From assembly GCA_003155695.1 (NCBI GenBank), contig PMDZ01000006.1, positions 20,007 through 84,006 on the forward strand: a stretch of DNA of 64,000 nt, read 5' to 3'. The notes beneath the pieces are model-generated. The model made no database searches. It saw only the letters and a program-made list of their open reading frames with translations, and was not told the DNA's origin. Position 1 is the first letter of the stretch. Each line of letters begins with the position of its first letter. The stretch is from Candidatus Nomurabacteria bacterium. Lineage in GTDB: Bacteria > Patescibacteriota > Minisyncoccia > Phycocordibacterales > UBA9973. Shown piece by piece: positions 5,333 through 62,161 of this stretch. The position numbers were made by a program, and so were the translations under genes.

Positions 5333-5366
5333 ATAATTACTAATTATATATGGTATAATAAAAGAT

Positions 5367-12386: not shown

Positions 12387-12430
12387 TAATAACCTTACAT
12401 AAATGGTTATTTTGTGGTATAATAGAACAT

Positions 12431-13183
12431 ATGGCTAAAATCGTTGTTGCCAACTGGAAAGAAAACCCGCAATCCCAAAAAGAGGCGGAAGTTCTTTTTA
12501 AGGGTACATTTCTCTTGGCGAAATTCAGAGAAAACACCAGAATCATTATCTGCCCGCCATTTCCATACCTCTATCTGTCCGGAAAATTTAAAAATAAAAA
12601 AGTTTTTCTTGGTGCCCAGAATGTCGGAAAAGAGGAGGGCGGGTCTTATACCGGGGAAGTTTCGCCTAAAATGCTTTCCGATATGGGAGCGGATTTTGCA
12701 ATAGTCGGCCACGGAGAAGAACGCTTACTTGGAGAGACAAATGAAATTATAAATGCAAAAATATTAAATTTACTTAAATTTAAACTCTCACCGATTCTTT
12801 GTGTCGGGGAAAGTGAGAGAGACAAAGAGGGAAATTATCTTTCTTTCGTCGAAGGACAAGTGAAAGATTGTCTTTTGGCTGTACCTAAAGCCCAAATGAA
12901 AAATATTATCATCGCTTACGAACCGATATGGGCAATAGGAGCGAATGCCACTCGTGAAGCAACAAAAGAAGAATTTATGGAAATGAAAATTTTTATCAAA
13001 AAAGTAATTTCCGATATTTATGACGGGAAGATTGCTCACAGTATACCGATTCTTTACGGCGGTTCGGTGAATCCAGCTAATGCTTCGCAATTTGTGGATG
13101 GTGGAAAAGCCGACGGACTGCTCGTTGGTCGCGACAGTCTCGACCCGAAAAAATTTGGAGCAATATTAAACGCCTTAAATTAA
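12431..13183 (+). CDS. tpiA: Triosephosphate isomerase
   Basis: ANWKEN, IVGHGEERLL, AYEPIWAIGAN and YGGSV match the canonical NWKMN, GHSERR, AYEPVWAIGTG and YGGSV motifs. Confidence 0.9.
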   Translation: MAKIVVANWKENPQSQKEAEVLFKGTFLLAKFRENTRIIICPPFPYLYLSGKFKNKKVFLGAQNVGKEEGGSYTGEVSPKMLSDMGADFAIVGHGEERLLGETNEIINAKILNLLKFKLSPILCVGESERDKEGNYLSFVEGQVKDCLLAVPKAQMKNIIIAYEPIWAIGANATREATKEEFMEMKIFIKKVISDIYDGKIAHSIPILYGGSVNPANASQFVDGGKADGLLVGRDSLDPKKFGAILNALN

Positions 13184-22267: not shown

Positions 22268-22387
22268 ATAAACATCTCCGCAAATCTTATCAATAAAAAA
22301 GTCCTCGGACGAGGGAGGACGAGGAGCCAGACATTTTTTCTTGAAAAGATTTGCTACGATTTAAAAATCTTCACGACTGTGAGGATT

Positions 22388-22633
22388 TTACTTTATAATT
22401 CCGGCTTTTTTCAGAACTTTATAGGCGCCTTTTTTGTTGATTGTTTTGATGGCCTTAGTTGAAATAGTGAGAGGGAAATATTTTTTGAGTTCTGGGACAT
22501 AAACCCTTTTCTTTTGCAGATTGGAATATTTACGAACATTACCGGTCGGATTGAATTTGGTAGCACGAACAACGTTGGAATATCCTCCCGCCATTATCGA
22601 ACCCTTTTTTGTTATGTCGCAAACTTTCGCCAT
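22388..22633 (-). CDS. rpmB: 50S ribosomal protein L28
   Basis: MAKVCDITKKGSIMAGGYSNVVRATKFNPTGN...ISTKAIKTINKKG fits the L28 pattern (MAKVC.ITGK...GN.VSH....T.R.F.PN). Confidence 0.75.
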   Translation of the reverse strand: MAKVCDITKKGSIMAGGYSNVVRATKFNPTGNVRKYSNLQKKRVYVPELKKYFPLTISTKAIKTINKKGAYKVLKKAGIIK

Positions 22634-22736
22634 CCCATTAAAAAATTTAATTATAATATTTATACTTAACTCTATAATCCCGGAATTTTCTAACGGGACA
22701 AGTATGTGAAGCTATGCTATCATATAAAACACACCT

Positions 22737-39540: not shown

Positions 39541-39626
39541 AAAAAAATATAATGATTGCCTAATCTCAATTAAAGTTATATAATCGACAAGTCGGAACAT
39601 TATTAGTAGTTAAAAATATAAAATAT

Positions 39627-39896
39627 ATGCCAAAAGAAAAAGGACCTGAAGCGTTTAGTTTAACTCCAGAATATAGTGAGGCGAAGAAAGAATTTGGTCT
39701 TGATGTTTTAGATAATACCCAAATAGGTCTACGGGAAAAACTTAAAAAGCTCAAAGATCTTGCAGAAAAAATAGGTAACAATGCTAATAATTCCGCTGAT
39801 TTCGAGAATTTTCTTGGATATTGGATAAAAGCCAAAGATCGTGAACTTTATGAAGCTTATATGGAAAGTTTAGAAAATCTCAGAGACGCTGCATAA
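39627..39896 (+). CDS. Small hypothetical protein (89 aa), acidic/helical
   Basis: The ORF has a following imperfect 17-bp hairpin (atacaaaaatgtcctta / taaggatatttttgtat at about 39917..39958). No recognisable motif. Confidence 0.4.
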   Translation: MPKEKGPEAFSLTPEYSEAKKEFGLDVLDNTQIGLREKLKKLKDLAEKIGNNANNSADFENFLGYWIKAKDRELYEAYMESLENLRDAA

Positions 39897-40003
39897 GAAG
39901 GTAAATAAAGATTTTAAATATACAAAAATGTCCTTAATTATAAGGATATTTTTGTATATTTAGATTAATTTAAGTTTTAACTCTTCTATGGTATGATAGG
40001 CAC

Positions 40004-47741: not shown

Positions 47742-47765
47742 CTTTTTCTCTTTGGCGTATCTCTG

Positions 47766-47858
47766 AATAGTCTTATTGAAGGGGCTTGTGAACTCGACGG
47801 AGCGAACACTGAGCTAATTTCTACCAAGAAATTAACGTACCCTTCAAGAAGAGCTATT
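47766..47858 (-). repeat. Copy E of the structured interspersed repeat (subfamily 1, reverse orientation), upstream of ftsK
   Basis: aatagtcttattgaaggggcttgtgaactcgacggagcgaacactgagctaatttctaccaagaaattaacgtacccttcaagaagagctattc. Confidence 0.75.
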
Positions 47859-47884
47859 CATATTTAATACAGAGCAGTTCCGAG

Positions 47885-47975
47885 ATAGCTCTTCTCAGAG
47901 AGCACGGATATTTTTCTACTGAAAAATTCCTCGTGCTCGCGCCGTCGCGCTCCCAAGTCTCTCTGATAAGACTAT
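47885..47975 (+). repeat. Copy F of the structured interspersed repeat (subfamily 2, forward orientation), flanked by a 12-bp inverted repeat (gagcagttccga / tcggaactgctc)
   Basis: atagctcttctcagagagcacggatatttttctactgaaaaattcctcgtgctcgcgccgtcgcgctcccaagtctctctgataagactat. Nearly identical to copy C, with compensatory changes (CAGAGAG/CTCTCTG versus CAGAGGG/CCCTCTG). Confidence 0.8.
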
Positions 47976-48072
47976 TTCGGAACTGCTCCCAAACATCTTG
48001 CGCAGAATATTTTTCGGTATATAATGGACACATTAAAGACATATTATCCCGTCAAGGCGGGGAAAAAGACAG

Positions 48073-48903
48073 ATGGATAATAAAAAAGACATACAACAGA
48101 CAAGCATAAATACTTATGGACAACCAAATGTCTCTGACAGTAAATCATTAGTGGACAGGCCTGTTTATGAGTTTATCAACAAAAAGACAGAAAAATTAGT
48201 TACTGCTCTCTATATGGTTACCGACTGCATGGATACCGACGATGCTCTCAAAGGGAAACTTCGTCAGTTAGGTGTAGAATTACTGTCCGATATGTATAAG
48301 CTTTCAACCTTATCCCCAATGGACAAATATACTCGTATTTCTTCCTCTCTTGCCCGTATTGATGAGATACTTTCTTTCATTGAGATTACTTACACAATTG
48401 GTTTTATTTCGGAAATGAATACCGTCATTTTGAAGAAAGAGTTCACAATTTTAATAGAGGAGCTAGAATCTCACCAAAAAGAAAACAAGCATTTCACATT
48501 TACCTTAGACGAGAAGATATTTGATTTACCGGAACTTCAAATCGCAGGGAAAGATTCAGATTACAAAGGGCAATCATTTATAAAGGACAAAAGGACATCT
48601 TTTAATAGTATGTCCTTTATGGATAATAAAAGTCCTTTACAAAAATCCCAACCTAAAAGGACAATATCTCACGAATCAAATTTTGCCGATAGGCAAGAGA
48701 GGACGAATAAGATATTAGCTCTTATAAAAGAAAAGAAGGACTTGCCTACTGGAGAAGTAGGAGTTTCGATAAAAGACATCTCTCTTTCTTTTACAGACTG
48801 CTCGGAAAAGACAATTCAACGCGAACTGAACTCACTTGTCCAGAAAGGTCAACTCAAGAAAACCGGGGCTAAACGCTGGTCGCGATACTCTATTGTTATT
48901 TAA
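48073..48903 (+). CDS. Hypothetical protein with a C-terminal winged-helix-like DNA-binding region
   Basis: A 276-aa protein. The C-terminus ...LPTGEVGVSIKDISLSFTDCSEKTIQRELNSLVQKGQLKKTGAKRWSRYSIV resembles wHTH recognition-helix/wing patterns. The N-terminal domain is unrecognised. Confidence 0.35.
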   Translation: MDNKKDIQQTSINTYGQPNVSDSKSLVDRPVYEFINKKTEKLVTALYMVTDCMDTDDALKGKLRQLGVELLSDMYKLSTLSPMDKYTRISSSLARIDEILSFIEITYTIGFISEMNTVILKKEFTILIEELESHQKENKHFTFTLDEKIFDLPELQIAGKDSDYKGQSFIKDKRTSFNSMSFMDNKSPLQKSQPKRTISHESNFADRQERTNKILALIKEKKDLPTGEVGVSIKDISLSFTDCSEKTIQRELNSLVQKGQLKKTGAKRWSRYSIVI

Positions 48904-49013
48904 AAAAGACGACAATATTATTGTTTTGTGACGACGGGTGGGGGCGTGCCGTTCCGAGGTAACCCGAGGAATGGGGTTAAGGAGGAATAAAACAATAATA
49001 TTGTCGTCTTTTT
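48903..49013. repeat. 25-bp perfect inverted repeat (AAAAAGACGACAATATTATTGTTTT) enclosing a GC-rich 61-nt loop, starting at the stop codon of the preceding gene
   Basis: Arms at 48903..48927 and 48989..49013. The loop reads gtgacgacgggtgggggcgtgccgttccgaggtaacccgaggaatggggttaaggaggaat, roughly 62% GC in a roughly 35% GC genome. Confidence 0.7.
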
Positions 49014-49328
49014 CTGTTTTAGGCTATTTCAAGGAAACCCTTATATTCCCAGTTATCCACACCTTTTGGTCAAATCCTATGTATCTATTGCATATTATAA
49101 ACCTGGAGTATATAATATCTGTGTATATTGTTGCTGGTATTTTTTTACCATATGTGATAATATATAGTATCCCTGTGTACTTGTTTCTAATAAGCGCATT
49201 TGGGAAGAGAAGATCATTGAAAATAAAATACCTCTATATTCTAATACCAAGAAGGTAGTGGCCGTTTCGTTTTCACTGGTCGGATCCGTTTTGTTTCTTT
49301 TCAATTTTATTTTTCCTCAATCGCCCGA

Positions 49329-49700
49329 TTGATAGAGATTGGGTGAGTCTTACTTTGATAGAGGTGAGATTATCCCGTTGATAGAGACGGGTGATAAAAG
49401 AAAAATAAAAATAAAGATTTCAAAATGTGGTATCGGCCCTGTCGACAAGGCAGATATGCTTGTCTCGTCTTTTCTTTACTCTCTCGAAAAGAGATTCTTA
49501 AGAAGGGTAAAGGCAGGCAGTGTTTTTTAGTTTAGTTATTCAAGTAATTTATTTTTTGATACTTATTCCGTCATCATTTTTTTGATAGAGAAATTGTGGA
49601 GGGAAGAGAATAAAATAAATTATGAGATGGAAGGTTTATGTTTGTTATTTTACGGTTTTGAATTTTGTTACTTTTTCCATCGCAACTTTTTTGATAGAGA
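49329..49700 (+). promoter_or_regulatory. Five direct copies of TTGATAGAG in the roughly 960-bp noncoding region upstream of the S-layer-like gene
   Basis: Three copies lie at 26- and 23-bp spacing (49329, 49355, 49378), each followed by a GGTGA-containing tail. Further copies are at 49581 and 49692, each preceded by a T-run. They fall in different codon phases of any overlapping ORF, so they are nucleic-acid-level repeats. Confidence 0.5.
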
Positions 49701-49865
49701 GAAGTTATGGTTCAAGTTTCAGAATTTGGAAATTCAGTAAAAAAAGATTATTAATTATTAATTTCAATTCTTAATTATTAATCAAATACACACACATTAG
49801 TTTTTTTCCGGAGCACACAATTCATTATCAGTCGTCTTCCGGAATTAGTCGAAGCTAATCTAAAC

Positions 49866-51752
49866 GTGTATAAAATTATAAAGATTATGTTAAAAAAATT
49901 TTTAATCGGAGCAATAGCAGTAATAGCTTTTGGTGTTGTTATGCACACAGCTATGGCCGCTCTTGATTTCGGTCCTACAACTTTAAAAGTAGGTAGTACA
50001 GGAGTATTCGTAAGCACACTTCAGCAATTTGTTGGAGCAACAGCTGACGGATCTTTCGGTCCTATGACGAAAGCAAAGGTTATGGCATGGCAAGCAACAA
50101 ACGGCTTAACAGCTGATGGCGTGTTTGGTCCATTGTCAAAAGCTAAAGCTAACGCAACAGTTGGAACATATCCATCAGGTTGTTCGTCAACATTGGGTTA
50201 CAGCACAACAACCGGTTTACCATGTACAACAGCAGGAAATTATCCGGCAGGCTGTACTTCAGAAGTAGGATACTCTCCTACAACCGGAGCAAAGTGTGAT
50301 AGTTCAACAACTGGTGGTGGTTCCTCAGGTGGAGCTCTATCCGGTGGTGCAGGGGATGCAACTTTAACTCACTATTCAACCAGTGAGAAAAGTAAAATAA
50401 AAGAAGGAGATTCAGACGTTAAAGTTCTTGGCTTCAGAGTTGAAGCTTCAGATTCTGACATTGCTGTAAACAATGTTAAAGTTAAAATCGAAAACACTGA
50501 TGCACCTTCTTCTTCGTACAAAATCACAAAATACTTAGATTCAGTGGATATCTACCAAGGTTCAACAAAGGTTGGATCGGCAGATGCTGCTGACTTTACA
50601 AAAGCATCAGATGATTCTTACTCAAAATCAATTGCAGTTTCAAATGCAGTTGTTAGAGATGGGGACAAGGATCCTTTCTATGTAGTATTCAATGCTGTAG
50701 ATAGTATTGATTCAGAAAACTCTACTGCAAGTCTTACAGTAGGTGTAGAATCATTCCGCTTTACAGATGGATCAGGAGTTGTTACAACAGCAACACCCGA
50801 TCCAGCAGTTTCTAATGTAGTTACATTAGATGATTCATCAGATGTTCTAACTCTAAAGTCATCTTCAAATAATCCTGATGATGTAACTGTTACAGTTGAT
50901 GAAAACAATACTACAGATGAAGTATTAGCTCTTGCATTCAAATTGAAGGCAGGTTCTGATTCTTCAGATATCACACTTGATAAACTTCCAATTACTCTTG
51001 AAATAGCTGGTGCTGGAGCATCGGTTACTTCTTCAGAAAAAGTTATTGATTCTGTAGTTGTTAAGTTAGATGGTAAGGAAATCACAGCTGATGCTACTAA
51101 TACATCAATTAATAACGCAGGGTCAGATACAGCTCTATATACAGCTGACCTTTCAAATGAGGATATTACTATTGCTCAAGATGATACCCTTGAAGCAAAA
51201 GTTTATATAACTTTTGTTGAACAGGGTGGAACAGGTTCTGGTAAGAACTATACAGATGGCTCAACAGTTGTTACTGCTCATATAACAGGTACTGCTATTA
51301 CAGCAGAAAGTGCTAATGATGATACTATCAGTCCAACATCTGGTACACAAACAGGTGCTGCACTTACACTAAGTACATCTTCAATTACTTTGTCTGGTAT
51401 GAGTTGGACAACAACTTCAGGTTCATCTACTGGTACACTTGACTTCTACTTCTCATTAGAAGCTGGTGATAATGATGTTGAAAATCTTACAATAAGTGAT
51501 GTTGTTACATCAGAAAATACAACTAATGCTGGTGGTAAAGCAGCTGGTGATGCAGCAGGAGTTCTTACAAAGATATCTGGTGATGCAACAACAAACTCAA
51601 CAGGTAACTTTACAATCTCATCAGGTGATACTGCTAACTTCAGAATTAGATATACCACAACAGTTTCTGGTTCAGAAGTTCAGATTAAAACAATTAAAGG
51701 ACAAACAGTTCCTGATAACAAGCAATTGTCAGGTACATTTATTGCTCAATAA
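49866..51752 (+). CDS. Secreted cell-surface protein with an N-terminal peptidoglycan-binding (PG_binding_1-like) domain, Cys-pair repeats and a long S/T/D/A/V-rich beta region (S-layer-like)
   Basis: A signal peptide, then LKVGSTGVFVSTLQQFVGATADGSFGPMTKAKVMAWQATNGLTADGVFGPLSKAKA (a PGBD pattern), then three repeats YP(S/A)GC..(L/V)GYS.TTG..C, then about 450 aa of low-charge T/S/D/V-rich sequence. The gene has its own strong terminator. Confidence 0.6.
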   Translation: MYKIIKIMLKKFLIGAIAVIAFGVVMHTAMAALDFGPTTLKVGSTGVFVSTLQQFVGATADGSFGPMTKAKVMAWQATNGLTADGVFGPLSKAKANATVGTYPSGCSSTLGYSTTTGLPCTTAGNYPAGCTSEVGYSPTTGAKCDSSTTGGGSSGGALSGGAGDATLTHYSTSEKSKIKEGDSDVKVLGFRVEASDSDIAVNNVKVKIENTDAPSSSYKITKYLDSVDIYQGSTKVGSADAADFTKASDDSYSKSIAVSNAVVRDGDKDPFYVVFNAVDSIDSENSTASLTVGVESFRFTDGSGVVTTATPDPAVSNVVTLDDSSDVLTLKSSSNNPDDVTVTVDENNTTDEVLALAFKLKAGSDSSDITLDKLPITLEIAGAGASVTSSEKVIDSVVVKLDGKEITADATNTSINNAGSDTALYTADLSNEDITIAQDDTLEAKVYITFVEQGGTGSGKNYTDGSTVVTAHITGTAITAESANDDTISPTSGTQTGAALTLSTSSITLSGMSWTTTSGSSTGTLDFYFSLEAGDNDVENLTISDVVTSENTTNAGGKAAGDAAGVLTKISGDATTNSTGNFTISSGDTANFRIRYTTTVSGSEVQIKTIKGQTVPDNKQLSGTFIAQ

Positions 51753-51825: not shown

Positions 51826-51885
51826 TTATTTGAAAAGCTCCATTTCGTATAGATATTTTGTTCTTTTTCGGTTATACTCTTTAAT

Positions 51886-53904
51886 ATGGTGAAGGTAAAA
51901 GAGCAAATACTTTGGCAATGGAAGTGGATAGAATACTTGGCCTATGCTATTGTTTTTATCACCCCTCTTTATTTTAGTACAAATCATTGGTTTTCGTTTA
52001 ATTCCCCGAAGACGCTCGCTATTTCTTTTGGAGTTTTGTCTATGACTATATTGTATGCTTGGGGAGTTATTGTCTCAAAGAAATTTTCTATAAAAGTTAC
52101 CCCACTTCACATTGTATTAGGAGTTTTTCTTGTCATTCTTACTATCAGTTCTATTTTGGGAGTGGATGCGCATAATTCATTTTTTGGGACTTTTAGTTTT
52201 CCGACCAACTTAATTTTTATTTATATAGTATCTTTGTTCGCTATTTTTATCGGATTTTTGATTCATAGAGATAAACAATTTTTACCAAAAATAATTTTAA
52301 CATCTTTTCTTAGTAGTATCATTGTGGCTTTTTTCTCATATACAGGGACTTCAATTTTTAAAATATTTACTGATTATAGTTCGACAATAGGGAATAGTTC
52401 ATATGCCGGGGCTTATCTCTTGTTCAATATTTGCTTTGGAATTGGCTTATTCTCATATTATAAAAAATGTTGGAAGAAGATATTAATAGCGATTTCAACT
52501 CTTTTTATTATTTTTTGCCCGCTATTCTTCAATATAGATATTTTTTCCGGGAAAATTGCATTATCGGATATTTTACACAATCCGCTTTTGCTCGCAGGTG
52601 TTGCAAATGGGGCAGCTCTGGGTGTAATTTTTTCCATTATAATCATTGCTTGTTTTTATCTCTTATTATCTTGTAAGAAGCCAATTAAAATTATTGGAGT
52701 TGTTTTATTTTTAGGATTTCTTTTGGGAACTGTTTATACTGGTTATATTTTTTTGAATCCAACCTCGAAGATTCATAATATATATTCTGAAGTAAAAGGT
52801 GATAATAGATTTATAGCTTGGGATATTGCTGAGAGAGGTTTGATGGATAGACCGCTACTCGGTTCCGGATTTAATAACTTTTATTACACATATCAAAAAT
52901 ATTTTAGAGCGGATATTTATAAAGAAGATATTGAATTTTTCCTCCAACCGCATAATGTTGTTTTTGAGTATGCATCAAATAATGGTATTTTAGGATTAGT
53001 TTCTTTTCTCTCGTTGTTATTTTTTACTTTTCTCGCATTGTTTAAGTATAGAGAAGATGAAGACGGAGAATATAGAATGTTTAGAATCTCTATAATTGGT
53101 ATTTTATTCGGATATTTTATTCAAAATTTATTTGGTTTTGATACAGTTACCTCTTACCTGATGCTTTTCTTGGTTGTTGGGATTGCGATAGGACTATCTT
53201 ACAAAAACCGGGATATTGCATTTACCGACAAATCGGAAATAATAAAAAAAATAATTTCTGTAATTATAATACTTGGGAGCCTAGTTTCTATTGTTTTATT
53301 TGTTGTATTGCCATGGAAAGAATCTTTAAAATGGAGACATTTTAACCAGGAGACAAGACTTCAGGAGCTTAGCATATTGAGACAAGGGTTGCAGGAGACC
53401 TCTCTTTTCGGAGGAGTAGGAGATAGTACTTATGAAGCAATTAAATTATATAATTTTTATATAGCAAATGTGGATAAAATAAATGATTCGAATAGAATGT
53501 CTTTTCTTGATGAAATTGATTCTATTGTCGGGCAAATAGAAAAAGACCAACTGTCTCAACCAGATGATTTTCGGGCTTATCTTGTCATAGGGAAGTTATT
53601 GAGTCTAAAAATATATATTATGGGGAGGGTCGATGAGAGTGTTTGGGGAAAAGCGAATTTTTATCTGGATAAAACACTCAGCATTGTTAATTACCAAAAC
53701 CCTGAAGCTTTCTTGGCAAAGGCACAATTATATATTTTCAAAAATGACTATGTCCAAGCTCGTTTATATACCCAAAAAGCAATATCGTTAATTCCAAACT
53801 ACAAAGATTCATATGAAATAGCAAAAAAAATTCAAGCCTTGAGCTCCGATAAAGATTTCCAGAAATACATAGATAATATGCAAAAAATCTGGCTTATAAA
53901 ATAA
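51886..53904 (+). CDS. Wzy_C-domain (O-antigen ligase / O-oligosaccharyltransferase-like) polytopic membrane protein with C-terminal TPR repeats
   Basis: About 12 TM helices with the Wzy_C signature region ...RPLLGSGFNNFYYTYQKYF...QPHNVVFEYASNNGILGLVSFL. The C-terminus AFLAKAQLYIFKNDYVQARLYTQKAISLIPNYKDSYEIAKKI is TPR-like. Confidence 0.7.
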   Translation: MVKVKEQILWQWKWIEYLAYAIVFITPLYFSTNHWFSFNSPKTLAISFGVLSMTILYAWGVIVSKKFSIKVTPLHIVLGVFLVILTISSILGVDAHNSFFGTFSFPTNLIFIYIVSLFAIFIGFLIHRDKQFLPKIILTSFLSSIIVAFFSYTGTSIFKIFTDYSSTIGNSSYAGAYLLFNICFGIGLFSYYKKCWKKILIAISTLFIIFCPLFFNIDIFSGKIALSDILHNPLLLAGVANGAALGVIFSIIIIACFYLLLSCKKPIKIIGVVLFLGFLLGTVYTGYIFLNPTSKIHNIYSEVKGDNRFIAWDIAERGLMDRPLLGSGFNNFYYTYQKYFRADIYKEDIEFFLQPHNVVFEYASNNGILGLVSFLSLLFFTFLALFKYREDEDGEYRMFRISIIGILFGYFIQNLFGFDTVTSYLMLFLVVGIAIGLSYKNRDIAFTDKSEIIKKIISVIIILGSLVSIVLFVVLPWKESLKWRHFNQETRLQELSILRQGLQETSLFGGVGDSTYEAIKLYNFYIANVDKINDSNRMSFLDEIDSIVGQIEKDQLSQPDDFRAYLVIGKLLSLKIYIMGRVDESVWGKANFYLDKTLSIVNYQNPEAFLAKAQLYIFKNDYVQARLYTQKAISLIPNYKDSYEIAKKIQALSSDKDFQKYIDNMQKIWLIK

Positions 53905-53932
53905 TTATTAAAATAAATGTTATAATTAGGAT

Positions 53933-54817
53933 ATGAAAATAATAGTCACAGGCGGAGCGGGGTTTATTGGGAGCCATATTGTGGATACTCTTATTAACGG
54001 GGGATACGAAGTCCATGTTGTGGATAACTTATCGGCTGGGAAAAAGGAAAATGTGAACCCAAAGGCAACTCTACATGTAGTGGATATCCGAGATAAAGAT
54101 GCCCTCATTCCGATTTTTAAGGATGCCAAATACGTCTTCCACGAAGCAGCTTTCCCCCAAGTAGAGTATTCTATCCAAAATCCAATAGAGACAAATGATA
54201 TCAATGTGAATGGAACGTTGAATGTCTTGGAGGTTTCAAAAATAAATAAAGTCAGAAGAGTTATCTTTGCCTCTTCGTGCGCTGTCTATGGTGACCAAGA
54301 GAAAATGCCAATGGTTGAGGATATGGCTGTTTATCCACTTTCTCCTTATGCTGTCCATAAGCATATTGGGGAAATATATATGAAATTATATTCAGAAATT
54401 TATAATCTGGAGACTGTTTGTCTTCGGTATTTTAATGTCTATGGTCCACGCCAATCTGTGAATGGCTCATATCCACTTGTCATAGCCAAATTTTTAGACC
54501 TGAAAAAACAAAATAAGCCGCTTATGATAGTCGGAACCGGTGAGAATACTCGCGATTATGTCAATGTTCGAGATATTGTCCGGGCAAACATATTGGCGAT
54601 GAAAGGTGATAAGGTTGGAAAAGGAGAAGTTATAAATATTGGTACCGGCAAACAATATTCTGTTAACCAAATTGCCGAAATCATCGGTGGTCCGACAGAG
54701 CACATTCCTCCGCGAATTGAACCTCGTTGCGCGGAAGCTGGCATTACAAAAGCCAAAGAGCTTCTTGATTGGGAGCCGAGTGTGAGTTTAGAGGAGGGGA
54801 TAAATACTTTGCTTTAG
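53933..54817 (+). CDS. NAD-dependent sugar-nucleotide epimerase/dehydratase (GalE/WbpP-like SDR)
   Basis: MKIIVTGGAGFIGSH Rossmann fold and the YxxxK catalytic motif (YAVHKHIGE). Confidence 0.85.
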   Translation: MKIIVTGGAGFIGSHIVDTLINGGYEVHVVDNLSAGKKENVNPKATLHVVDIRDKDALIPIFKDAKYVFHEAAFPQVEYSIQNPIETNDINVNGTLNVLEVSKINKVRRVIFASSCAVYGDQEKMPMVEDMAVYPLSPYAVHKHIGEIYMKLYSEIYNLETVCLRYFNVYGPRQSVNGSYPLVIAKFLDLKKQNKPLMIVGTGENTRDYVNVRDIVRANILAMKGDKVGKGEVINIGTGKQYSVNQIAEIIGGPTEHIPPRIEPRCAEAGITKAKELLDWEPSVSLEEGINTLL

Positions 54818-54847
54818 GCCTTATTAATTAAAATATAAAGTTGTTAT

Positions 54848-55603
54848 ATGGATAATATTTTAGAAGAAGAAAAAAAATTTCAAGATTCGAAAGTCACAAG
54901 CAGTGTTCGTGCTGGGTATTATGCTTTCTATAAAGATAACAAAGAAACATTAGCTCATATTAATAATCATTTAAATGGAGTTTCCGGGAAAATTCTTGTT
55001 TTGGGATGTGGAGATGTGGATATTACCTTGCTTTCCAAATACAAATTCAACCAAATTGTTGGAATCGATATTTCTCCCGAATCGGTGAAAAAAATAAATT
55101 TATTCATAAAAAATAAAGGGTTGGGCGACAAAATAAAATGTTTTGTTATGGATGCCCATAATTTGGAGTTTAGTGATAAAGAATTCGATATAATCTTCGG
55201 AACTGGTATTTTGCATCATTTAAACATTGAAAAGGCCTCAGAAGAAATGAGGAGAGTATTAAAAGATAACGGCGAAATAATTTTTATGGAACCACTGGGA
55301 ATAAATCCAGTGCTAAATTGGCATCGCAAAAGAACACCGGAAGCAAGAACTGAATTTGAACACCCACTTCGCTCCAAAGACTTCAAGACAATAAAAAAAT
55401 ATTTTTCAATAAGCACAAAAGGGTTTTATCTATTTACAATCCTAAGTTTTGGATTCAAAACTATTATTAAATCTGATTTTCTTTATAAAATAAGTCGATT
55501 AGCACTTTCAGGCTTGGACATGTTATTATTATCTGTACTACCCTTAGATTACTTATGTTGGATTACAATCATTGAAGGTAAAAAAAGAAATTTAACTGTC
55601 TGA
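54848..55603 (+). CDS. Class I SAM-dependent methyltransferase
   Basis: ILVLGCGDVD motif I, GIDISPES, and a hydrophobic C-terminal tail. Confidence 0.65.
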   Translation: MDNILEEEKKFQDSKVTSSVRAGYYAFYKDNKETLAHINNHLNGVSGKILVLGCGDVDITLLSKYKFNQIVGIDISPESVKKINLFIKNKGLGDKIKCFVMDAHNLEFSDKEFDIIFGTGILHHLNIEKASEEMRRVLKDNGEIIFMEPLGINPVLNWHRKRTPEARTEFEHPLRSKDFKTIKKYFSISTKGFYLFTILSFGFKTIIKSDFLYKISRLALSGLDMLLLSVLPLDYLCWITIIEGKKRNLTV

Positions 55604-55621
55604 TGAGTCAGCAAAATAATT

Positions 55622-56554
55622 ATGGAAATAAGTGAAGAAAAAAGAAAGGAACTGATATCTCAACTTGACAGACTTTCAAAAAGAGCGTTTGAATACTTAA
55701 GATTTTTAGGCGCTGGCTTTATAAAAAAAATAATGAGAATGATCTCCTCTCCACGAATATTTTTTGAAAATATTTTCTGGCGCTTACGAGTGAAAATATC
55801 AGGATGCAAAAGTGAAATCCCTGTCACGTTTTTCTTTGGCAGAAAAATCCTTTTGGATATAAGAGACCGTGATGCCCTTGACCTCAAGCTGTTCGGTCTT
55901 TTGCCGGCCGACGAAGAATGCTCACTCACGAAATATTTTATAATGAATTTAAAGTCAAACGACGTATTTTACGATATCGGCGCGAACTGGGGTTTCTATT
56001 CTTATCTTGCCGTCATATTTTGCAATGAAGTACATGTTTTCGAACCTTTGCCAAATATAGCGAAACTTTTGGAAAAAAATTTAAGCGGTGACGCAAAAGT
56101 AACTTTCAATAACATTGCCATATCCGACAAAAAAGGGAGTTCTGAAATCTATATCAGTGAAAGTTCAGGAAGAAGTACGATTAACAAAGAATCTGTCGAG
56201 ATGAATGGGGGAAAAAACATGGGGAAAATTATTATTCAAACAACAACTTTGGATGAATATGTCCTGGGGAAAAATCTTCCGACAATCATCAAGATGGATG
56301 TGGAAGGAGCGGAATATATGGTAATCAAAGGGGGTATTGATATCTTTTCAAAACACAATCCGATTATTGCTTTAGAGGTATGGTCATCCTCTTTTGGAGG
56401 ATCAATTTCGATGAAAGCGGTAGAATTGCTGAGAGAAATGGGGTATACTTCATATAGAATAACGGATAAGAGCACGCTTGAAGGAATAAAAGGAGATCTA
56501 TCTTTGTCGATAGGACAAGGAAGAAATTGTGAAAACTTCATTTTTAAAAAATAA
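55622..56554 (+). CDS. FkbM-family methyltransferase
   Basis: YDIGANWGFYS...LDEYVLGKNLPTIIKMDVEGAEYMVIKGG, the Methyltransf_21/FkbM signature. Confidence 0.8.
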   Translation: MEISEEKRKELISQLDRLSKRAFEYLRFLGAGFIKKIMRMISSPRIFFENIFWRLRVKISGCKSEIPVTFFFGRKILLDIRDRDALDLKLFGLLPADEECSLTKYFIMNLKSNDVFYDIGANWGFYSYLAVIFCNEVHVFEPLPNIAKLLEKNLSGDAKVTFNNIAISDKKGSSEIYISESSGRSTINKESVEMNGGKNMGKIIIQTTTLDEYVLGKNLPTIIKMDVEGAEYMVIKGGIDIFSKHNPIIALEVWSSSFGGSISMKAVELLREMGYTSYRITDKSTLEGIKGDLSLSIGQGRNCENFIFKK

Positions 56555-56590
56555 TGTTCATATTTACAATTATTAACAAAAAGTGTATCA

Positions 56591-57649
56591 ATGAATAACC
56601 AAGAAAAAAAAATTAAAATAGGAATAGTGGGTGCCGGCTGGGTGGCGAATAATCGACATATTCCGGCTTTTAAGTCCGACCGACGATGCAGTATCGTGGC
56701 AATATACGATACAACACTAGAAAAAGCGGAAAAAACGGCAAAAAAGTACAAAATAAAAAATATATTTTCTGATTATAATTCGTTTTTAAATTCGGAAATA
56801 GATGCTGTTGTGGTCTGTACTCCGCCAATGTGTCATGCCAGTGTGGCCAAGGAAGCGCTTCTTCGAAATAAACACGTGCTGGTAGAAAAACCATTTTCTC
56901 TCACTATCGCTGATGGAAAAGAAATTGAAAATATTGCAAAAAGCAATGGTTTAATACTTTTTCCGGGACATAATTTCCTTTTTTCTAGAGCAATGTTAAA
57001 AATAAAAGAAGAACTAAAAAAACCGGACACAGGTGATATTTTGCATGTATCCGGATATCAGTGGAGCAGTTGGATGCGTCATCTTCCGACTTGGTTTCCA
57101 GAATTACCCGGCGGCTTATTCTTTGATGAAGGTCCTCATTTTATGTATTTGATGAAATATCTTGTGGGAGATTTTTCCGTAACTTCCGCAACATATACCA
57201 AAAAAGAAGCTGGGATGAAAAGACCGTTTGAAAATTATGTGGTCTCGGTAAAGGGAGAAAGGGCAACTGGAGATTTTTCGATGTTTTTCGGGTCGCCAAT
57301 GTCCGAATGGTTAATTGTCATAATGTGTCAGAAAAAGACACTTGTTTATGATATGTTCAGGGACTTTTACTTTACATTTAACCCCGAGCTAAAAAGAACT
57401 CGCATGTATCCAATAAGTGTTGTTGCATCCTTTGACAGACAGGTTTGGAAACAATATATAAAGTGGATATTCAGAAGATACGCCATATTTAAGCGGCACT
57501 TATATGGTGCCGATGTAATCGCAAGAAAATTTTTGGACGCAATCACAGGAAAAAGCGAACCAATTTTACACCCGTCAGATGGATATCAAGCTGTCGAAAA
57601 AATTATTGAAATAATTAAAAAATCAGGAACGAATTTATATGAAGTCTGA
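56591..57649 (+). CDS. Gfo/Idh/MocA-family NAD(P)-dependent oxidoreductase (sugar-nucleotide dehydrogenase-like)
   Basis: IKIGIVGAGWVANNRHIPAF N-terminal Rossmann fold and the EKP motif (VLVEKPFSLT). Confidence 0.8.
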   Translation: MNNQEKKIKIGIVGAGWVANNRHIPAFKSDRRCSIVAIYDTTLEKAEKTAKKYKIKNIFSDYNSFLNSEIDAVVVCTPPMCHASVAKEALLRNKHVLVEKPFSLTIADGKEIENIAKSNGLILFPGHNFLFSRAMLKIKEELKKPDTGDILHVSGYQWSSWMRHLPTWFPELPGGLFFDEGPHFMYLMKYLVGDFSVTSATYTKKEAGMKRPFENYVVSVKGERATGDFSMFFGSPMSEWLIVIMCQKKTLVYDMFRDFYFTFNPELKRTRMYPISVVASFDRQVWKQYIKWIFRRYAIFKRHLYGADVIARKFLDAITGKSEPILHPSDGYQAVEKIIEIIKKSGTNLYEV

Positions 57650-58745
57650 AGTAGTTTTTTTTACTCATACACTAGAGGGGGGAGTCGGCAGAGTTACCAT
57701 GCAGTTGGCTGAAGGTTTTTTAAACGAGGGTGTTTCTTCGGAAGTTTGGACACAAGAGAACACAGATTTGTCTCCATCGTTTGCTTCAGTTAAAATTTTT
57801 TCTTTTAACAAAAAAAAGGCTCGCCAACTTTTTTTTCTTCTATTAAAAAAGATTAATGAAGATAAACCGAGAGTGATAATTTCATCAACATTCTATACCA
57901 ATATTATTGCTATAATATCGTCACTACTCTCTCATCGTAAAGTCAAAGTAATTGTTATCGAACATATTGCTGTTAAGTCTGAATTCAAAAACTTGGGTCT
58001 ATTAAAAAAATTAATCATGCGCGTCTTGATATTCTTTTTTTATCGTCTTGCCTATTCGGTCGTAACAGTGTCCGATGAATCCGGCGATATTCTAAGTAGA
58101 TTCTGCCTTTTACCACGAAAAAAAATTATTACTATATACAACCCTGTTATTTCTAAAGATTTATACGAAAAATCAAATACTCCAATAAACCACCCTTTTT
58201 TTAACTTAGGTCATCCAATTCTTCTTAATGTAGGAAGGCTAGATAAGCAGAAAGATATTGGCACACTCCTCGAGGCGTTTTCTATAGTAACGAAAGAAAT
58301 TGAAAGCCGCCTTATTATAATTGGAGAAGGAAATGGAAAAACACAATTAATAGAACAATGCAAAAAATTAAAAATTCTTAATCAGGTGGATTTTGCTGGG
58401 TATTTGAAAAATCCCTATCCTTTTTTCAAAAAATCTAGCGTGTTTGCCCTTTCTTCACTATATGAAGGTCTGCCAACTGTTCTTATTGAGGCCTTGGCTT
58501 TGCGACTTCCCATTGTCAGCACAAAATGTCCATCAGGTCCGGCAGAAATACTCCAGCAAGGAAAATACGGGATTCTTGTACCTATTAAAGATCCGAAATC
58601 TCTCGCACAAGGAGTTTTGAATCTTTTGAAAAATAAAAATATTATTCATGAACCACCGGAAGAATATCTAGACCCGTATACTCAAAAGTATTCTGTTCAC
58701 CGTTATCTTTCAATTATTCATAATATTAATAAAAAAAATGATTAA
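57639..58745 (+). CDS. Glycosyltransferase family 4 (GT-B, Glycos_transf_1)
   Basis: LLNVGRLDKQKDIGTLLEAF...FALSSLYEGLPTVLIEALALRLPIVSTKCPSGPAEIL (the EX7E region). Confidence 0.85.
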   Translation: MKSEVVFFTHTLEGGVGRVTMQLAEGFLNEGVSSEVWTQENTDLSPSFASVKIFSFNKKKARQLFFLLLKKINEDKPRVIISSTFYTNIIAIISSLLSHRKVKVIVIEHIAVKSEFKNLGLLKKLIMRVLIFFFYRLAYSVVTVSDESGDILSRFCLLPRKKIITIYNPVISKDLYEKSNTPINHPFFNLGHPILLNVGRLDKQKDIGTLLEAFSIVTKEIESRLIIIGEGNGKTQLIEQCKKLKILNQVDFAGYLKNPYPFFKKSSVFALSSLYEGLPTVLIEALALRLPIVSTKCPSGPAEILQQGKYGILVPIKDPKSLAQGVLNLLKNKNIIHEPPEEYLDPYTQKYSVHRYLSIIHNINKKND

Positions 58746-60012
58746 AACAATGTTAAATAAAATATCAAAAGAAATCGACTACTGTTTAATAGGAATTCTG
58801 TTTTTATGCATGTATTTTACCGGGCCCTTATATCAAGTAAATCTGATTGGGATAAAGATTTTACCATTTGATTTTGCCATTGTTGGAATAACAATTTTTG
58901 TAATTCTGAGAATGCTTAAAGAAAAAACTTTGAAATACAATATAATTTCATTTCCTAAGATATTACTGATTTCTTTCTGTTTATTCGCCACAATGATGTC
59001 ATTGGACATATTGAGAGTACCGGCACATTTATCAGTCTTGACCCTTCTTATTGCAACTATTCGAAATTTCGTATTCTCTTGGATAATAATTAATCTGGTT
59101 TTGCGTACTAAGATTAATCAAGAGCAAATCATGAGTTTAGTTACATGCATAACTACTGCCGTTTCATTTGTTAGTATAATTGCATATTTTATCTATTCTA
59201 TCTCGTTAGCTAAAATTCAAATGATGCCTTCTTTATGGCATCTTGGTATTTGGTATTATTTAAGCGAAGGAAAATTCTTGAGATTGTCTGGACTTGCAAG
59301 CGATCCCAATTTTTTTATCGCAGTTAGCATCGTGGGATTTATTTTTTCCCTCTTACTTTTCAATAAGAATAATTTACAGAAGATTATGTCGTTTATTATA
59401 TTCATTGCGCTTGTTCTTACTATTTCAAAAATTTTTCTAGTGTTGCTTGTTGGGTCATTCATGGGTTTGTTGGCGATTTATATAATAAAAAAACAAAAAT
59501 ATATTTTGGATATCCTACGAAACTTTTTAACGATCGTTATTATATCGTCGGTTGTTCTGCTGATTATTGGTATCATGTTCCCGAAAGTAAATGTGTATAA
59601 AATGTATACATCAAGAATATCCACTGAAGTAGCTTATACAAATAACCCAGAAGCAATTGACACTCGCTCGAGTTTGTGGAAGGTAGGATATGAAACTTAT
59701 TTGGAACACCCGGTTACTGGTTCCGGTGGCAAAGCTATACTCTTCAAAAGAGGTATGTATGTTCATAATGATTATCTGGAAATGATGAGTTCCTATGGCA
59801 TAATTGGCTTGATGATCTTACTCTTCTTCCTTTTTTCCAATCTATTTGTATCCTTTAAATATTTATACAGTAGATTGTTGCTGGCACCATTCCTCTCAAT
59901 TTTTTGTTATGTTGGTTTTATGATGGGTTTTTCAGTGTTTTTCAATCCATATTTTTTCTTTCCTCTCGGAATAATGTGGTCGCAAATTATTCTGTTAAAA
60001 AAACAAGAATAA
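58738..60012 (+). CDS. O-antigen polymerase/ligase-family (Wzy-like) polytopic membrane protein
   Basis: About 10-12 TM helices with a Wzy_C-like loop ...HPVTGSGGKAILFKRGMYVHNDYLEMMSSYGIIGLMILLFF. Confidence 0.7.
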   Translation: MIKTMLNKISKEIDYCLIGILFLCMYFTGPLYQVNLIGIKILPFDFAIVGITIFVILRMLKEKTLKYNIISFPKILLISFCLFATMMSLDILRVPAHLSVLTLLIATIRNFVFSWIIINLVLRTKINQEQIMSLVTCITTAVSFVSIIAYFIYSISLAKIQMMPSLWHLGIWYYLSEGKFLRLSGLASDPNFFIAVSIVGFIFSLLLFNKNNLQKIMSFIIFIALVLTISKIFLVLLVGSFMGLLAIYIIKKQKYILDILRNFLTIVIISSVVLLIIGIMFPKVNVYKMYTSRISTEVAYTNNPEAIDTRSSLWKVGYETYLEHPVTGSGGKAILFKRGMYVHNDYLEMMSSYGIIGLMILLFFLFSNLFVSFKYLYSRLLLAPFLSIFCYVGFMMGFSVFFNPYFFFPLGIMWSQIILLKKQE

Positions 60013-60041
60013 TCAGTTAACTTGCCAAAATTAGATTTAAG

Positions 60042-60932
60042 ATGATGATTTCAGTAATAATAATTACATACAGAAGAAAGGAGGAAATCCTGAAATGTTT
60101 AGAATCAATCGTATCACAGGACTATAATAATTATGAAATTATTCTTATCGATAATAACAAGGAAGAACATTTTTCCGAATATATTCTAAATCATGCAAAA
60201 GATGTACCTCGATTAAAATATATCAAAAATAATTTTAATTCTTCGGTTACAGGAGGGAGAAATCTGGGTGTTTTGCATGCCTCGGGAGATATTTGTGTTT
60301 TTATCGATGATGACGCGTTTTTTGAAAAAAATAATGCATTAACCTTAACTTCCGAAAAAATGAATAGAGAAAAAGATGTGGGGGTTTTAGCTTATAAAAT
60401 AATAAATTATTCGAGTAAAAATGTTGAGCGCAAAGAATTCCCATTTAAGAACAAAAAGATCGATAAAAATACTGAAACTGAAGCCTCATACTTCTTGGGA
60501 GGAGCACATGCAATACGTAGGAATGTCTTTGGTTTAGTAGAAGGATACCCGGAAGATTTTATATATGGAATGGAAGAATTGGATATTTCATTCAGAATTT
60601 TGGATAAGGGTTTTAAAATATTGTATTTCCCTTGTGTTATCGCATGGCACAACCCGTCCATATCGGGAAGACTTGAAAAAAAATCTTACTGGAAAAACAT
60701 TTTGGAAAATAGACTAAAGGTTGGAATCCGGAATCTTCCATGGAGGTATTTTGCGATTAATTTTATCATATGGTCTCTGAAGGTGCTGAAAGAATCCAAG
60801 AACATAATGGTGCTGATTGAAACATATAGTTCTCTTCTCAGAAACAGGAAAGAGATTCAGAAGGGAAGAAAAGTCATTTCGAACAAGACAATTAAAAAAT
60901 TAAAATTAATTGATAATAGGTTATATTATTAA
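60042..60932 (+). CDS. Glycosyltransferase family 2
   Basis: MISVIIITYRRKEEILKCLESIVSQDY..YEIILIDN and a DDD motif (FIDDDAFF). Confidence 0.85.
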   Translation: MMISVIIITYRRKEEILKCLESIVSQDYNNYEIILIDNNKEEHFSEYILNHAKDVPRLKYIKNNFNSSVTGGRNLGVLHASGDICVFIDDDAFFEKNNALTLTSEKMNREKDVGVLAYKIINYSSKNVERKEFPFKNKKIDKNTETEASYFLGGAHAIRRNVFGLVEGYPEDFIYGMEELDISFRILDKGFKILYFPCVIAWHNPSISGRLEKKSYWKNILENRLKVGIRNLPWRYFAINFIIWSLKVLKESKNIMVLIETYSSLLRNRKEIQKGRKVISNKTIKKLKLIDNRLYY

Positions 60933-60934
60933 AA

Positions 60935-62161
60935 ATGACAAAAAGAAAAAAAATACTGATTTCATTGTTCAGATTTCCTTATCCAGCAAGTGATGGTACT
61001 CGAAATAAAATTCTAAAAAGTGTGATTGAAGGACTTGCTACTGATTTTGATCTTGAGTTTTTTATTGTTTCAACTGAAAAAATTGAGCCCAAAAATGTTG
61101 AATATTTTAAGAACAAATACGGCAAAATCCATTTATTTAAGCATTCGAAATTCGAAATGGTATTAAGGGCATTTTGTGCTCTATTCTCAAAACTACCGAT
61201 TCAAGCGCGTGTGTACATATATGAAGATGCAAAGAAATGGCTAAGAAAAAACATCAATTCATTTGATGCATTATATGTTCACGAAATACGTCTTACCGAA
61301 TATTTAACAGATATTAACTTCGATAAAAATAAAATAGTAATCGACCTGAACGATGCAATATCTTTAAATTATAGTTCTTCTTTGGTTAATATCGGATATT
61401 TTAAAAAATTATTTTATTCTTTCGAATTTAAAAGAGTTAGAGATTATGAGGAAAAAATTGTTAATTCATTTAAACATTTTGTTACGGTGTCGGAATATGA
61501 CAGAAATTATCTGTTAAAATTTAATAAAAATAATTCACTAATACATTTTGTCTGTATTAGACTCGGTTTTGCAGTCTCTGAAAATTTTTATCGAGAAAAG
61601 GCGTCCGACCACAATATTTATTTTATCGGCAATTTGAATTATGAACCTAATCGTGATTGTATTTATTTCTTGTTACAACAAATTTTGCCGGAAGCAAAAA
61701 AAATAATTCCTGATCTTTCTTTATATATAATAGGAGGAGGTAATATTCCGAAGAAATTCTTTAGCCTTCCTGGTGTGATATTTACCGGGTTTGTTAATGA
61801 TCCTCTTCCAGTAATTGAAAAATGTAGCGCACTTATCGCACCCATCCGCTTCAACGGGGGAGTTCCTTCAAAAATTTTAGAATCCATGTCATACGGTATT
61901 CCCGTGGTGACATCCAAAGAAGCGGTTAATGGTATCGTTGATCTTAAAAATCACGAAAATATAATTTTATGCAATATTACCGATGTACATGCTTGGTGCC
62001 TGTCATTAAAAGAAATATTATTCAACTCTGAATTAAGAAACAAAATAGGGGTAAATGCTAAAGTATTCATAAATGAAAATTATTCTATATATAAAAGTCA
62101 ACAGGAATTTCGTAATTTGTTCCATGAAATTATATTGAGGAAAGAACCCTTTTCCAGCTAA
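60935..62161 (+). CDS. Glycosyltransferase family 4-like (GT-B)
   Basis: A C-terminal GT1/GT4 domain: IYFIGNLNYEPNRD...APIRFNGGVPSKILESMSYGIPVVTS. Confidence 0.75.
   Translation: MTKRKKILISLFRFPYPASDGTRNKILKSVIEGLATDFDLEFFIVSTEKIEPKNVEYFKNKYGKIHLFKHSKFEMVLRAFCALFSKLPIQARVYIYEDAKKWLRKNINSFDALYVHEIRLTEYLTDINFDKNKIVIDLNDAISLNYSSSLVNIGYFKKLFYSFEFKRVRDYEEKIVNSFKHFVTVSEYDRNYLLKFNKNNSLIHFVCIRLGFAVSENFYREKASDHNIYFIGNLNYEPNRDCIYFLLQQILPEAKKIIPDLSLYIIGGGNIPKKFFSLPGVIFTGFVNDPLPVIEKCSALIAPIRFNGGVPSKILESMSYGIPVVTSKEAVNGIVDLKNHENIILCNITDVHAWCLSLKEILFNSELRNKIGVNAKVFINENYSIYKSQQEFRNLFHEIILRKEPFSS

Follow-up and report, generated by a model that had tools for sequence, protein, structure and literature searches.

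The 64,000-nucleotide (nt) stretch of DNA analyzed here (the window) comes from a Candidatus Nomurabacteria bacterium (contig PMDZ01000006.1), and all positions given are those of the window. At 48904-49886 there is a gap of 983 nt, poor in open reading frames (ORFs), between a gene for a conserved protein of 276 amino acids (aa) and a gene for a putative surface protein. Our comparison of this island with its counterparts in related genomes inclines us to the view that it is a structured 5' leader RNA of the surface-protein mRNA, acting in cis. The leader is best read as a multivalent platform that would bind protein. As judged from sequence comparison, the RNA fits no known family and appears to be new. 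No Rfam family covers the island. Neither the whole window nor 18 homologous loci gave a match to Rfam 15 at the gathering threshold, a search of 48700-50000 at a permissive E-value returned only chance microRNA-type matches on a strain-specific hairpin, and this RNA is not described in the literature searched.

Conservation of the island and its promoter

Relatives were collected with a profile of the upstream 276-aa family, which gave 80 metagenomic loci with 44-72% protein identity. A motif scan of reference genomes added one further locus (L028), the other matches being mostly unrelated tandem repeats. The same strain has been assembled independently from several metagenomes, and the island is 100% identical in five copies. 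Wherever a homologous locus extends at least about 600 nt beyond the upstream gene, the element is present (~50 loci), always in the order conserved 276-aa gene, element, gene for a signal-peptide/peptidoglycan-binding protein. In nearly all of these loci the next gene after the element encodes a signal-peptide protein homologous to that of the window. The lineages carrying the element are Nomurabacteria/Paceibacteria, and the RecA encoded in the window shares a 90%-identity cluster with RecA proteins from Candidatus Nomurabacteria. In an alignment of 56 islands the conservation profile begins at ~49050 and extends to the ATG, with conserved and variable blocks alternating, and the island itself is thus conserved among relatives. 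Its center contains an invariant block:

49432-49455, + strand: invariant core AUCGGCCCUGUCGACAAGGCAGAU (24 nt; as DNA, the 24-mer ATCGGCCCTGTCGACAAGGCAGAT)

The core is without mismatch in 50 of 53 loci, despite an identity of only 44-72% between the flanking proteins. It is unique in the window, and none was found in the viral contigs that were scanned for it. One clade carries a different conserved module (L186 4700-4770; L200 1360-1420; L202), comprising CCGACUUCGGUCGG followed by the terminator-like GGAAAAGGCCUUUUUUCC, and this suggests that the central domain was replaced there as a module.

An earlier note on this DNA had described a noncoding island of about 960 bp, and its interpretation is partly borne out. 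The island is real, but its 3' border is shifted to 49886. The codon at 49866 that had been taken for the ATG of the downstream gene is an in-frame GTG, and the conserved start is the ATG at 49887 (MLKKFLIGA..., common to homologues). The GC content of the island is 33%, compared with 37% for the window. It is by far the largest gap in the window, although the other spacers are not all below 200 bp as had been claimed (47742-48072 is 331 nt). The next-longest stretches without ORFs of at least 100 aa are 22268-22736 and 39541-40003 (~465 nt each), and they contain ORFs of 81 aa (- strand) and 89 aa (+ strand) respectively. The short ORFs within the island had been dismissed as junk. A 106-aa ORF with a GTG start (48938-49258) has no Pfam match and begins in the unconserved section 48904-49047, and no gene is called in the gap on six independent contigs of the same strain.

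To a decayed mobile element, which the note had also considered, or a protein gene that is frameshifted or pseudogenized, we give almost no credence. Short ORFs are present, and one strain-specific inverted-repeat element lies at the 5' edge. However, the scanned ORF is without a Pfam match, and the element is single-copy and occupies the same syntenic position in ~50 lineages. Moreover, the invariant block falls in two different frames according to locus, so that the same nucleotides read as MWYRPCRQGRY... or VVSALSTRQICLS.... Indels of 1 nt shift the core relative to the nearest ATG, and in L142 and L144 it is preceded by TAG TAG. A protein-coding gene or pseudogene was therefore rejected, as was a small Cys-rich peptide (MWYRPCRQGRY..., from the ATG at 49426), for which the frame differs among loci, with stop codons ahead of the core in L142 and L144. 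A diversity-generating retroelement (DGR) was rejected too. There is no reverse transcriptase among the neighboring genes, which also include FtsK and RecA, and there are no template and variable repeats in the 64 kb, where no repeat derived from the island was found outside it.

The conserved region opens with two elements at the level of DNA:

49053-49061, + strand: TTATCCACA box, upstream of the promoter, matching the DnaA-box consensus in full
49088-49116, + strand: sigma-70-type promoter, TTGCAT-17 nt-TATAAT

Both hexamers of the promoter are perfect in most of the ~50 loci, and the TTGCAT-17-TATAAT pattern has a single match in the 64-kb window. Transcription is predicted to start at ~49121-49123, and the predicted transcript is ~764 nt long in the window and 480-1034 nt in relatives. 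The suggestion of a multi-promoter region did not hold up, as this is the single conserved promoter. A second promoter-like sequence at 49153, TGTGATAAT, was rejected because it forms the 3' strand of helix P1. Among 51 distinct upstream regions, 40 have a perfect TTATCCACA box and 47 have one with no more than one mismatch, compared with a background of 0.016 per 60 nt. The orientation of the box is fixed, and the -35 hexamer follows 6-42 nt downstream, most commonly at 6, 16-17, 22 or 26-27 nt; L028 and L128-L207 have the box at the equivalent position. Its role may be in DnaA-dependent (cell-cycle) control of the promoter, or it may be an operator of the adjacent winged-helix protein. The perfect DnaA box had suggested a replication origin (oriC), which was rejected. 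There is just one box in the island, and the cumulative GC skew makes no turn there; therefore this is not an origin.

Helices and repeated hairpins of the RNA

The RNA has at least ten helices that covary or are conserved, together with several invariant single-stranded motifs. Those of the 5' and central parts are:

49123-49165, + strand: stem-loop P1, with outer helices and an inner GGUA/UACC helix, at the predicted 5' end
49171-49204, + strand: hairpin P2, of variable length, closed by CCC/GGG
49212-49220 (GAUCAUUGA) with 49273-49281 (UCAcUGGUC), + strand: helix P3, enclosing P3a
49231-49261, + strand: helix P3a, with the nearly invariant loop UAAUACCAA at 49242-49250
49282-49434, + strand: domain closed by P4, in which GGAUCCGUUUUG (49282-49293) pairs with CAAAAUGUGGUAUC (49421-49434), with an AU-rich extension; it holds hairpins H1-H3
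49439-49453, + strand: predicted hairpin P5 inside the core, CUGUC GACAA GGCAG
49457-49519, + strand: long hairpin P6 directly after the core, its distal stem capped by GAAAA in the window

Helices were evaluated in MAFFT alignments of anchored segments. P1 begins 7 nt past the -10 hexamer. Its outer helices are paired in 96% and 92% of cases (alignment A5) with compensatory changes, one pair of columns (21-49) being GC 18 times, UA 16 times and UG seven times. The covariation score of 0.363, compared with 0.254 in shuffled alignments, was reached by none of 500 shuffles. P3a (alignment A4, 49 sequences) is 88% paired, compared with 69% in shuffles and ~40% when the strands are slid. Compensatory changes occur in ten of its 11 pairs, and its score of 0.626 (0.283 in shuffles) was again reached by none of 500. 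P2 is 64-72% paired and all six inner pairs have changes on both sides, although its support is weaker than that of the other helices. P3 is predicted only, both strands being nearly invariant. A kissing interaction between the P3a loop (AAUACCA) and the tip of P1 (UGGUAUU) was rejected, since by eye the P1 tip varies and the loop does not.

P4, which is the inverted repeat I2, was examined by a mix-and-match test of duplex stability in 48 loci. Native strand pairs come to -7.9 kcal/mol, compared with -5.1 kcal/mol for non-native pairs, so that strands of one locus gain 2.8 kcal/mol in stability over mismatched strands taken from other loci. None of 5000 permutations was as good. All 50 homologues have P6 in the same place. 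It measures 25-76 nt, and the stems of the most divergent loci are unrelated in sequence. Its cap is a GNRA tetraloop (GAAA, GUAA or GCAA) in about half of the relatives. P6 was assessed by folding each sequence separately. MAFFT with RNAalifold on the core region gave only the invariant hairpin, because the variable P6 cannot be aligned by sequence.

The second component of the structure is a set of hairpins that present the same loop. The array and isolated copies of TTGATAGAG that the earlier note had seen are there. The island has five (49329, 49355, 49378, 49582 and 49691), each on the + strand, and the rest of the 64 kb has none, compared with a mean of 0.52 and a maximum of two in dinucleotide shuffles. 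Each copy falls in a hairpin:

49321-49346, + strand: H1, stem strands UCGCCCGAU and AUUGGGUGA, loop UGAUAGAG
49347-49371, + strand: H2, stem strands GUCUUAC and GUGAGAU, loop UUUGAUAGAG
49374-49391, + strand: H3, stem strands CCCGU and ACGGG, loop UGAUAGAG
49571-49599, + strand: H4, loop UUUUGAUAGAG, in a lineage-specific duplication
49677-49710, + strand: H5, stem strands CCAU-cgc-AACUU and AAGUU-AUGG, loop UUUUGAUAGAGAG; orthologous hairpins in most relatives
49526-49648, + strand: lineage-specific duplication of a hairpin unit, including H4, in alignment columns that are unconserved

The UGAUAGAG loop is common to 2-7 hairpins per locus, on stems of differing and unrelated sequence. Each locus with at least about 600 nt downstream has 2-7 copies of GATAGAG, all on the + strand. 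A stem of at least 5 bp closes 70% of the 198 GAUAGAG copies in the 56 islands, compared with 28% for random positions of these islands and 36% for the - strand. The stems comprise 90 distinct sequences, and 22% of their pairs are G-U. The islands have 178 copies of TGATAGAG on the + strand and none on the - strand, a density of 3.1 per kb compared with 0.018 per kb per strand outside. The region 49290-49730 folds with -122.8 kcal/mol (z = -4.7) as the + strand and -70.9 kcal/mol (z = -2.4) as the - strand. The loops read (U)UGAUAGAG(A), and are without GGA. The duplication contains a direct repeat, D1, of a 66-nt unit with a UGAUAGAG hairpin (49526-49591 and 49635-49700, 71% identity), and this shows how the copy number of the hairpins changes.

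Pairing of the UGAUAGAG loops elsewhere in the RNA was rejected, as the complementary CUCUAU at 49233 is not conserved. For a possible UUGAUA/UAUCAG contact of the UGAUAGAG loop with the loop of P7 in the 3' domain, both sides hardly vary. One type of hairpin, CCGUUGCUUUU-GAUAGAG-AAGCGG, is followed after the stem by GGAGGA and then by a second, unpaired copy, (G/U)GAUAGAGA or UAGUAGAGA. It is found in L130 (5252-5290), L138, L147, L149, L158, L159, L171 and L028 (3442-3475), and the motif therefore also occurs outside hairpin loops. Many leaders have AT-rich short repeats of the type TTAATTCTTAATTC / TTAATTATTAA in their variable parts, located both downstream of P3a and ahead of the 3' domain (49745-49782 in the window; 3040-3075 and 3580-3620 in L028; also L134, L154 and L182).

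It is clearly important to ask if the conserved motifs might function as DNA only, with TTGATAGAG, the TGTCGACA palindrome in the core and TTATCCACA being operators for the winged-helix protein or DnaA. A winged helix-turn-helix is indeed encoded upstream, TTATCCACA is strongly conserved before the promoter, and the palindrome in the core is 8 bp long. Yet the compensatory changes and frequent G-U pairs make sense only for a + strand RNA, the motif is present 178 times on one strand and not at all on the other, and there are helices capped by GNRA loops. We consider this explanation very improbable. The RNA and DNA sites may well exist side by side, and the TTATCCACA box is one candidate for such a site, but DNA sites cannot explain the whole island.

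The 3' domain, the start codon and the reading as a leader

The third component lies immediately before the surface-protein gene:

49786-49871, + strand: 3' domain of the nested helices P9, P10 and P7, with AUYAGUCG motifs conserved in loops
49786-49791/49866-49871, + strand: P9, the outermost helix
49796-49804/49851-49859, + strand: P10
49806-49810/49840-49844, + strand: P7

P7 corresponds to the CCGGA(N25)TCCGG hairpin of the earlier note, the repeats of which are located at 49808-49812 and 49838-49842. The ACACACACA tract is present as well (49788-49796), but it does not stand just before the ATG as had been thought, being 91 nt upstream of the true start. In an alignment of 35 sequences (A6) the 3' domain is 98.3% paired, compared with 91% in shuffles and at most 44% when slid. 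Compensatory changes are found in nine pairs, and none of 500 shuffles was as good. A covariance model of the domain (R1) gave one match per homologous locus, 47 in total and including loci outside the seed, and it found no match in the other 119 (unrelated) loci of the motif scan. A local hairpin, AUUAG-UCGAAG-CUAAU at 49844-49859, was rejected because covariation backs the long-range P10. The end of the domain (P9) lies 16 nt before the AUG in the window, and a short, fixed distance to the AUG is found in at least 35 loci.

The long structured 5' leader proposed in the earlier note is upheld to the extent that there is a structured + strand RNA reaching the downstream start codon, with compensatory changes in the four sets of helices tested. 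We favor the leader because there is a conserved promoter upstream and no conserved terminator before the start codon at 49887. A terminator scan between promoter and ORF matched H1 only, and P6 was rejected as an attenuator terminator, since a run of at least five U follows it in just 12% of loci (six U in the window). The transcript from ~49123 would thus run into the start codon of the peptidoglycan-binding surface protein, and would probably extend into the glycosylation genes behind it. P1 at the extreme 5' end might guard it against decay that depends on the 5' end. The UGAUAGAG loops, UAAUACCAA, the AUYAGUCG motifs and the core could dock a trans-acting factor which, bound in several copies, might govern the surface-protein mRNA at the level of stability, elongation or translation. 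The 3' domain could then couple the factor-bound state to initiation at the ATG at 49887, which is without a Shine-Dalgarno sequence.

A number of points weigh against this leader. The sequence TATAAA lies 12 nt before the ATG at 49887, and the ORF may therefore have its own promoter. A Shine-Dalgarno-like sequence is missing at ~32 of 39 start codons inspected in the window, and inspection by eye shows at least six genes in which an extended -10 (TGnTATAAT or similar) ends 6-7 nt ahead of the ATG (for example at 5351-5369, 12415-12433, 53918-53935, 51869-51888 and 60917-60937). This suggests that leaderless mRNAs are widespread in this organism. The start site, the 3' end and any processing of the RNA are all inferred from sequence. 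One GGUC is claimed by both P3 and an extended P4. Since P3, P5 and the core are free of variation, their pairing stays predicted only. One clade (L186, L200 and L202) does without the core altogether. The upstream protein is tied to the RNA by constant adjacency and analogy of fold alone, and an invariant core with many helices is more typical of trans-acting ribonucleoprotein (RNP) RNAs or of riboswitch aptamers.

The main alternative is that the island encodes an independent or processed, stable non-coding RNA of 0.5-1 kb that forms a trans-acting RNP, like OLE RNA with the Oap genes. This we hold to be possible, at clearly lower probability than the leader. Its partner would be the adjacent Avd-like/winged-helix protein, with the surface-protein gene a mere conserved neighbor having its own promoter close by. 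In its favor, 24 nt are invariant while the flanking proteins are 44-72% identical, there are at least ten helices and several invariant single-stranded motifs, and the link of the RNA to the upstream gene is as constant as that to the downstream gene. In addition, leaderless-type promoters are common in the genome, with TATAAA present 12 nt before the ATG, and the protein bundle resembles Avd, a subunit of the DGR ribonucleoprotein. However, from promoter to ORF there is no conserved terminator, and the spacing by which P9 ends 16 nt before the AUG is conserved. Furthermore, the 3' strand of P9 shares nucleotides with the -10-like hexamer near the ATG; this hexamer changes where P9 covaries, and its spacing to the ATG is variable. 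The cis-acting leader and the RNP are not mutually exclusive models.

Could the RNA be a riboswitch or attenuator, in which the core with P4, P5 and P6, or else P9, P10 and P7, binds a small ligand and switches pairings that control elongation or translation? Invariant junction and loop nucleotides between covarying helices would be consistent with this, as would an alternative hairpin, GACAAG/CUUGUC, that competes with P5 and P6 in most loci. AUUAG occurs twice, each copy able to pair with the same CUAAU, and six U follow P6 in this strain. But there is no match to an Rfam riboswitch, just 12% of loci have the run of five or more U, and GACAAG/CUUGUC, which never varies where it is present, is lost in divergent loci that keep P6. 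Covariation backs P10 over the competing local hairpin, and repeated hairpins of variable copy number are not a feature of riboswitches. We therefore regard a ligand-binding switch as improbable.

Flanking genes and comparison with known systems

Three further features adjoin the conserved RNA:

48073-48903, + strand: upstream gene, 276 aa, with a four-helix bundle like that of Avd and the '23S rRNA IVS (intervening sequence) protein', a disordered linker and a C-terminal winged helix
48903-49013, + strand: long hairpin of 111 nt, in which a perfect inverted repeat of 25 bp encloses a 61-nt loop of 62% GC
49887-51752, + strand: downstream gene, 621 aa, with a signal peptide, a PG_binding_1 domain and an acidic body rich in Ser, Thr and Asp

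The upstream gene always adjoins the RNA. Its family has at least 1125 matches, 'hypothetical' proteins of Nomurabacteria/Paceibacterota (alignment A2), and no Pfam or NCBIfam model matches its architecture, Pfam giving only weak helix-turn-helix matches. An AlphaFold2 (AF2) model has a mean pLDDT of 67, with ~80-88 in the folded parts, which are a four-helix bundle (residues 29-140) and a winged helix-turn-helix (204-274). In Foldseek the bundle matches 2gsc, 2rld, 4dwl and 8ub7, with a TM-score of ~0.8 on the target and a root mean square deviation of 1.6-2.3 Å over ~110 residues. The first two belong to the 'S23 ribosomal / 23S rRNA intervening-sequence protein' family, and the others are Avd of the Bordetella phage DGR, within the ribonucleoprotein in the case of 8ub7. 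The C-terminal domain matches repressors of the BlaI/MecI/ArsR type. By this analogy and by its position, the upstream protein is the most plausible trans-acting partner of the RNA.

The 25-bp inverted repeat with its GC-rich loop had been counted in the earlier note as part of the island. It is there as described (48903-48927 / 48989-49013), but lies outside the conserved element. Since the alignment of 56 islands is unconserved over 48904-49047, the repeat is strain-specific; among the homologous loci, only contigs of the same strain have the hairpin, and the window holds one copy of it. As RNA it folds with -49.8 kcal/mol (z = -6.2). It begins at the stop codon of the upstream gene and has a T-rich tract after it, and it is probably either the terminator of that gene or a small or miniature insertion.

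Downstream of the surface-protein gene, 51886-62161 encodes two Wzy_C (O-antigen-ligase-like) proteins, an NAD-dependent epimerase, two methyltransferases, a GFO/IDH/MocA oxidoreductase and three glycosyltransferases, a cluster of glycosylation type. From its sequence and surroundings, the downstream product is plausibly a surface (glyco)protein.

Taking these neighbors together with the RNA, we tentatively propose a new class of structured RNA of 0.5-1 kb, specific to Nomurabacteria/Paceibacteria, that forms a dedicated RNP with an oligomeric Avd-like/winged-helix protein and governs the cell-surface layer. Assembly might occur through the 2-7 UGAUAGAG hairpins and the core, giving an OLE-like particle or one like the DGR RNP minus its reverse transcriptase; this too we regard as possible and not as probable. 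The DnaA-type box might tie such control of the surface layer to the cell cycle.

Bacteria belonging to the candidate phyla radiation are mostly uncultured and have tiny genomes, and their regulatory RNAs are almost unexplored. Here nearly 1 kb is given to RNA in an otherwise tightly packed genome that appears to favor leaderless mRNAs. The RNA is of great size and elaborate fold, with parts in which conservation exceeds that of the neighboring proteins. It precedes the gene of what is probably the main surface protein, and the surface is where episymbionts contact their hosts. If our interpretation is correct there is a new RNA family that could be proposed to Rfam, and a defined RNA motif, the UGAUAGAG hairpin, with a protein partner that can be tested. 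This would be the third setting in which Avd/'IVS-protein' bundles are found beside a structured RNA, after the intervening sequences of 23S rRNA and DGRs. The strong native promoter and leader would be potential expression tools for these organisms.

We may compare the element with known systems. In TIGR arrays, loops with variable spacers are flanked by short box C/D motifs, and the associated protein has a Nop domain (PMC12045711). The island resembles TIGR-Tas systems in its tandem hairpins with palindromic, variable stems, in the adjoining gene for a small protein and in its occurrence in genomes of the candidate phyla radiation. It differs in that its loops are invariant and the whole element is orthologously conserved. 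A TIGR array was rejected, as the loops have no spacers and the neighboring protein has no Nop domain by Pfam or by fold.

Like OLE, GOLLD, ROOL and raiA, the RNA is over 500 nt, with many conserved helices, confined to one lineage and next to a constant gene that possibly encodes its partner. Unlike them, it is found in bacteria within the candidate phyla radiation and abuts a start codon in the sense orientation, and it is similar to none of their Rfam models. The arrangement also recalls DGR RNA and Avd, with the gene for an Avd-like four-helix bundle immediately upstream of a structured non-coding RNA, but here there is no reverse transcriptase and no template/variable pair, and the protein has an extra winged helix.

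The leaders of Escherichia coli ompA and Lactobacillus slpA have 5'-terminal stem-loops that stabilize abundant envelope and S-layer mRNAs, and the principle that 5'-terminal structure guards against 5'-end-dependent decay comes from ompA and Bacillus leaders. The island shares with ompA and slpA a long leader before the gene of a secreted surface protein, and a stable hairpin (P1) at the predicted first nucleotides. In contrast to those, it is several times longer (480-1034 nt), has at least ten helices and a 24-nt core, and belongs to a genome that otherwise appears to lean towards leaderless genes without Shine-Dalgarno sequences.

Finally, the closest parallel to the repeated hairpins is with sponges of the CsrB/RsmY/RsmZ type, where several hairpins present one short invariant loop motif on unrelated stems in variable copy number (2-7 here). 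The loop of the island is UGAUAGAG, whereas that of the CsrB type is GGA/ANGGA, the CsrA site being (A)NGGA. Moreover, the hairpins of the island sit within a much larger RNA that has unique, non-repeated structured domains and is contiguous with an ORF with no conserved terminator, while the sponges are free-standing RNAs with an intrinsic terminator. By analogy, the CsrB-like pattern of hairpins points to the multivalent binding of one protein.

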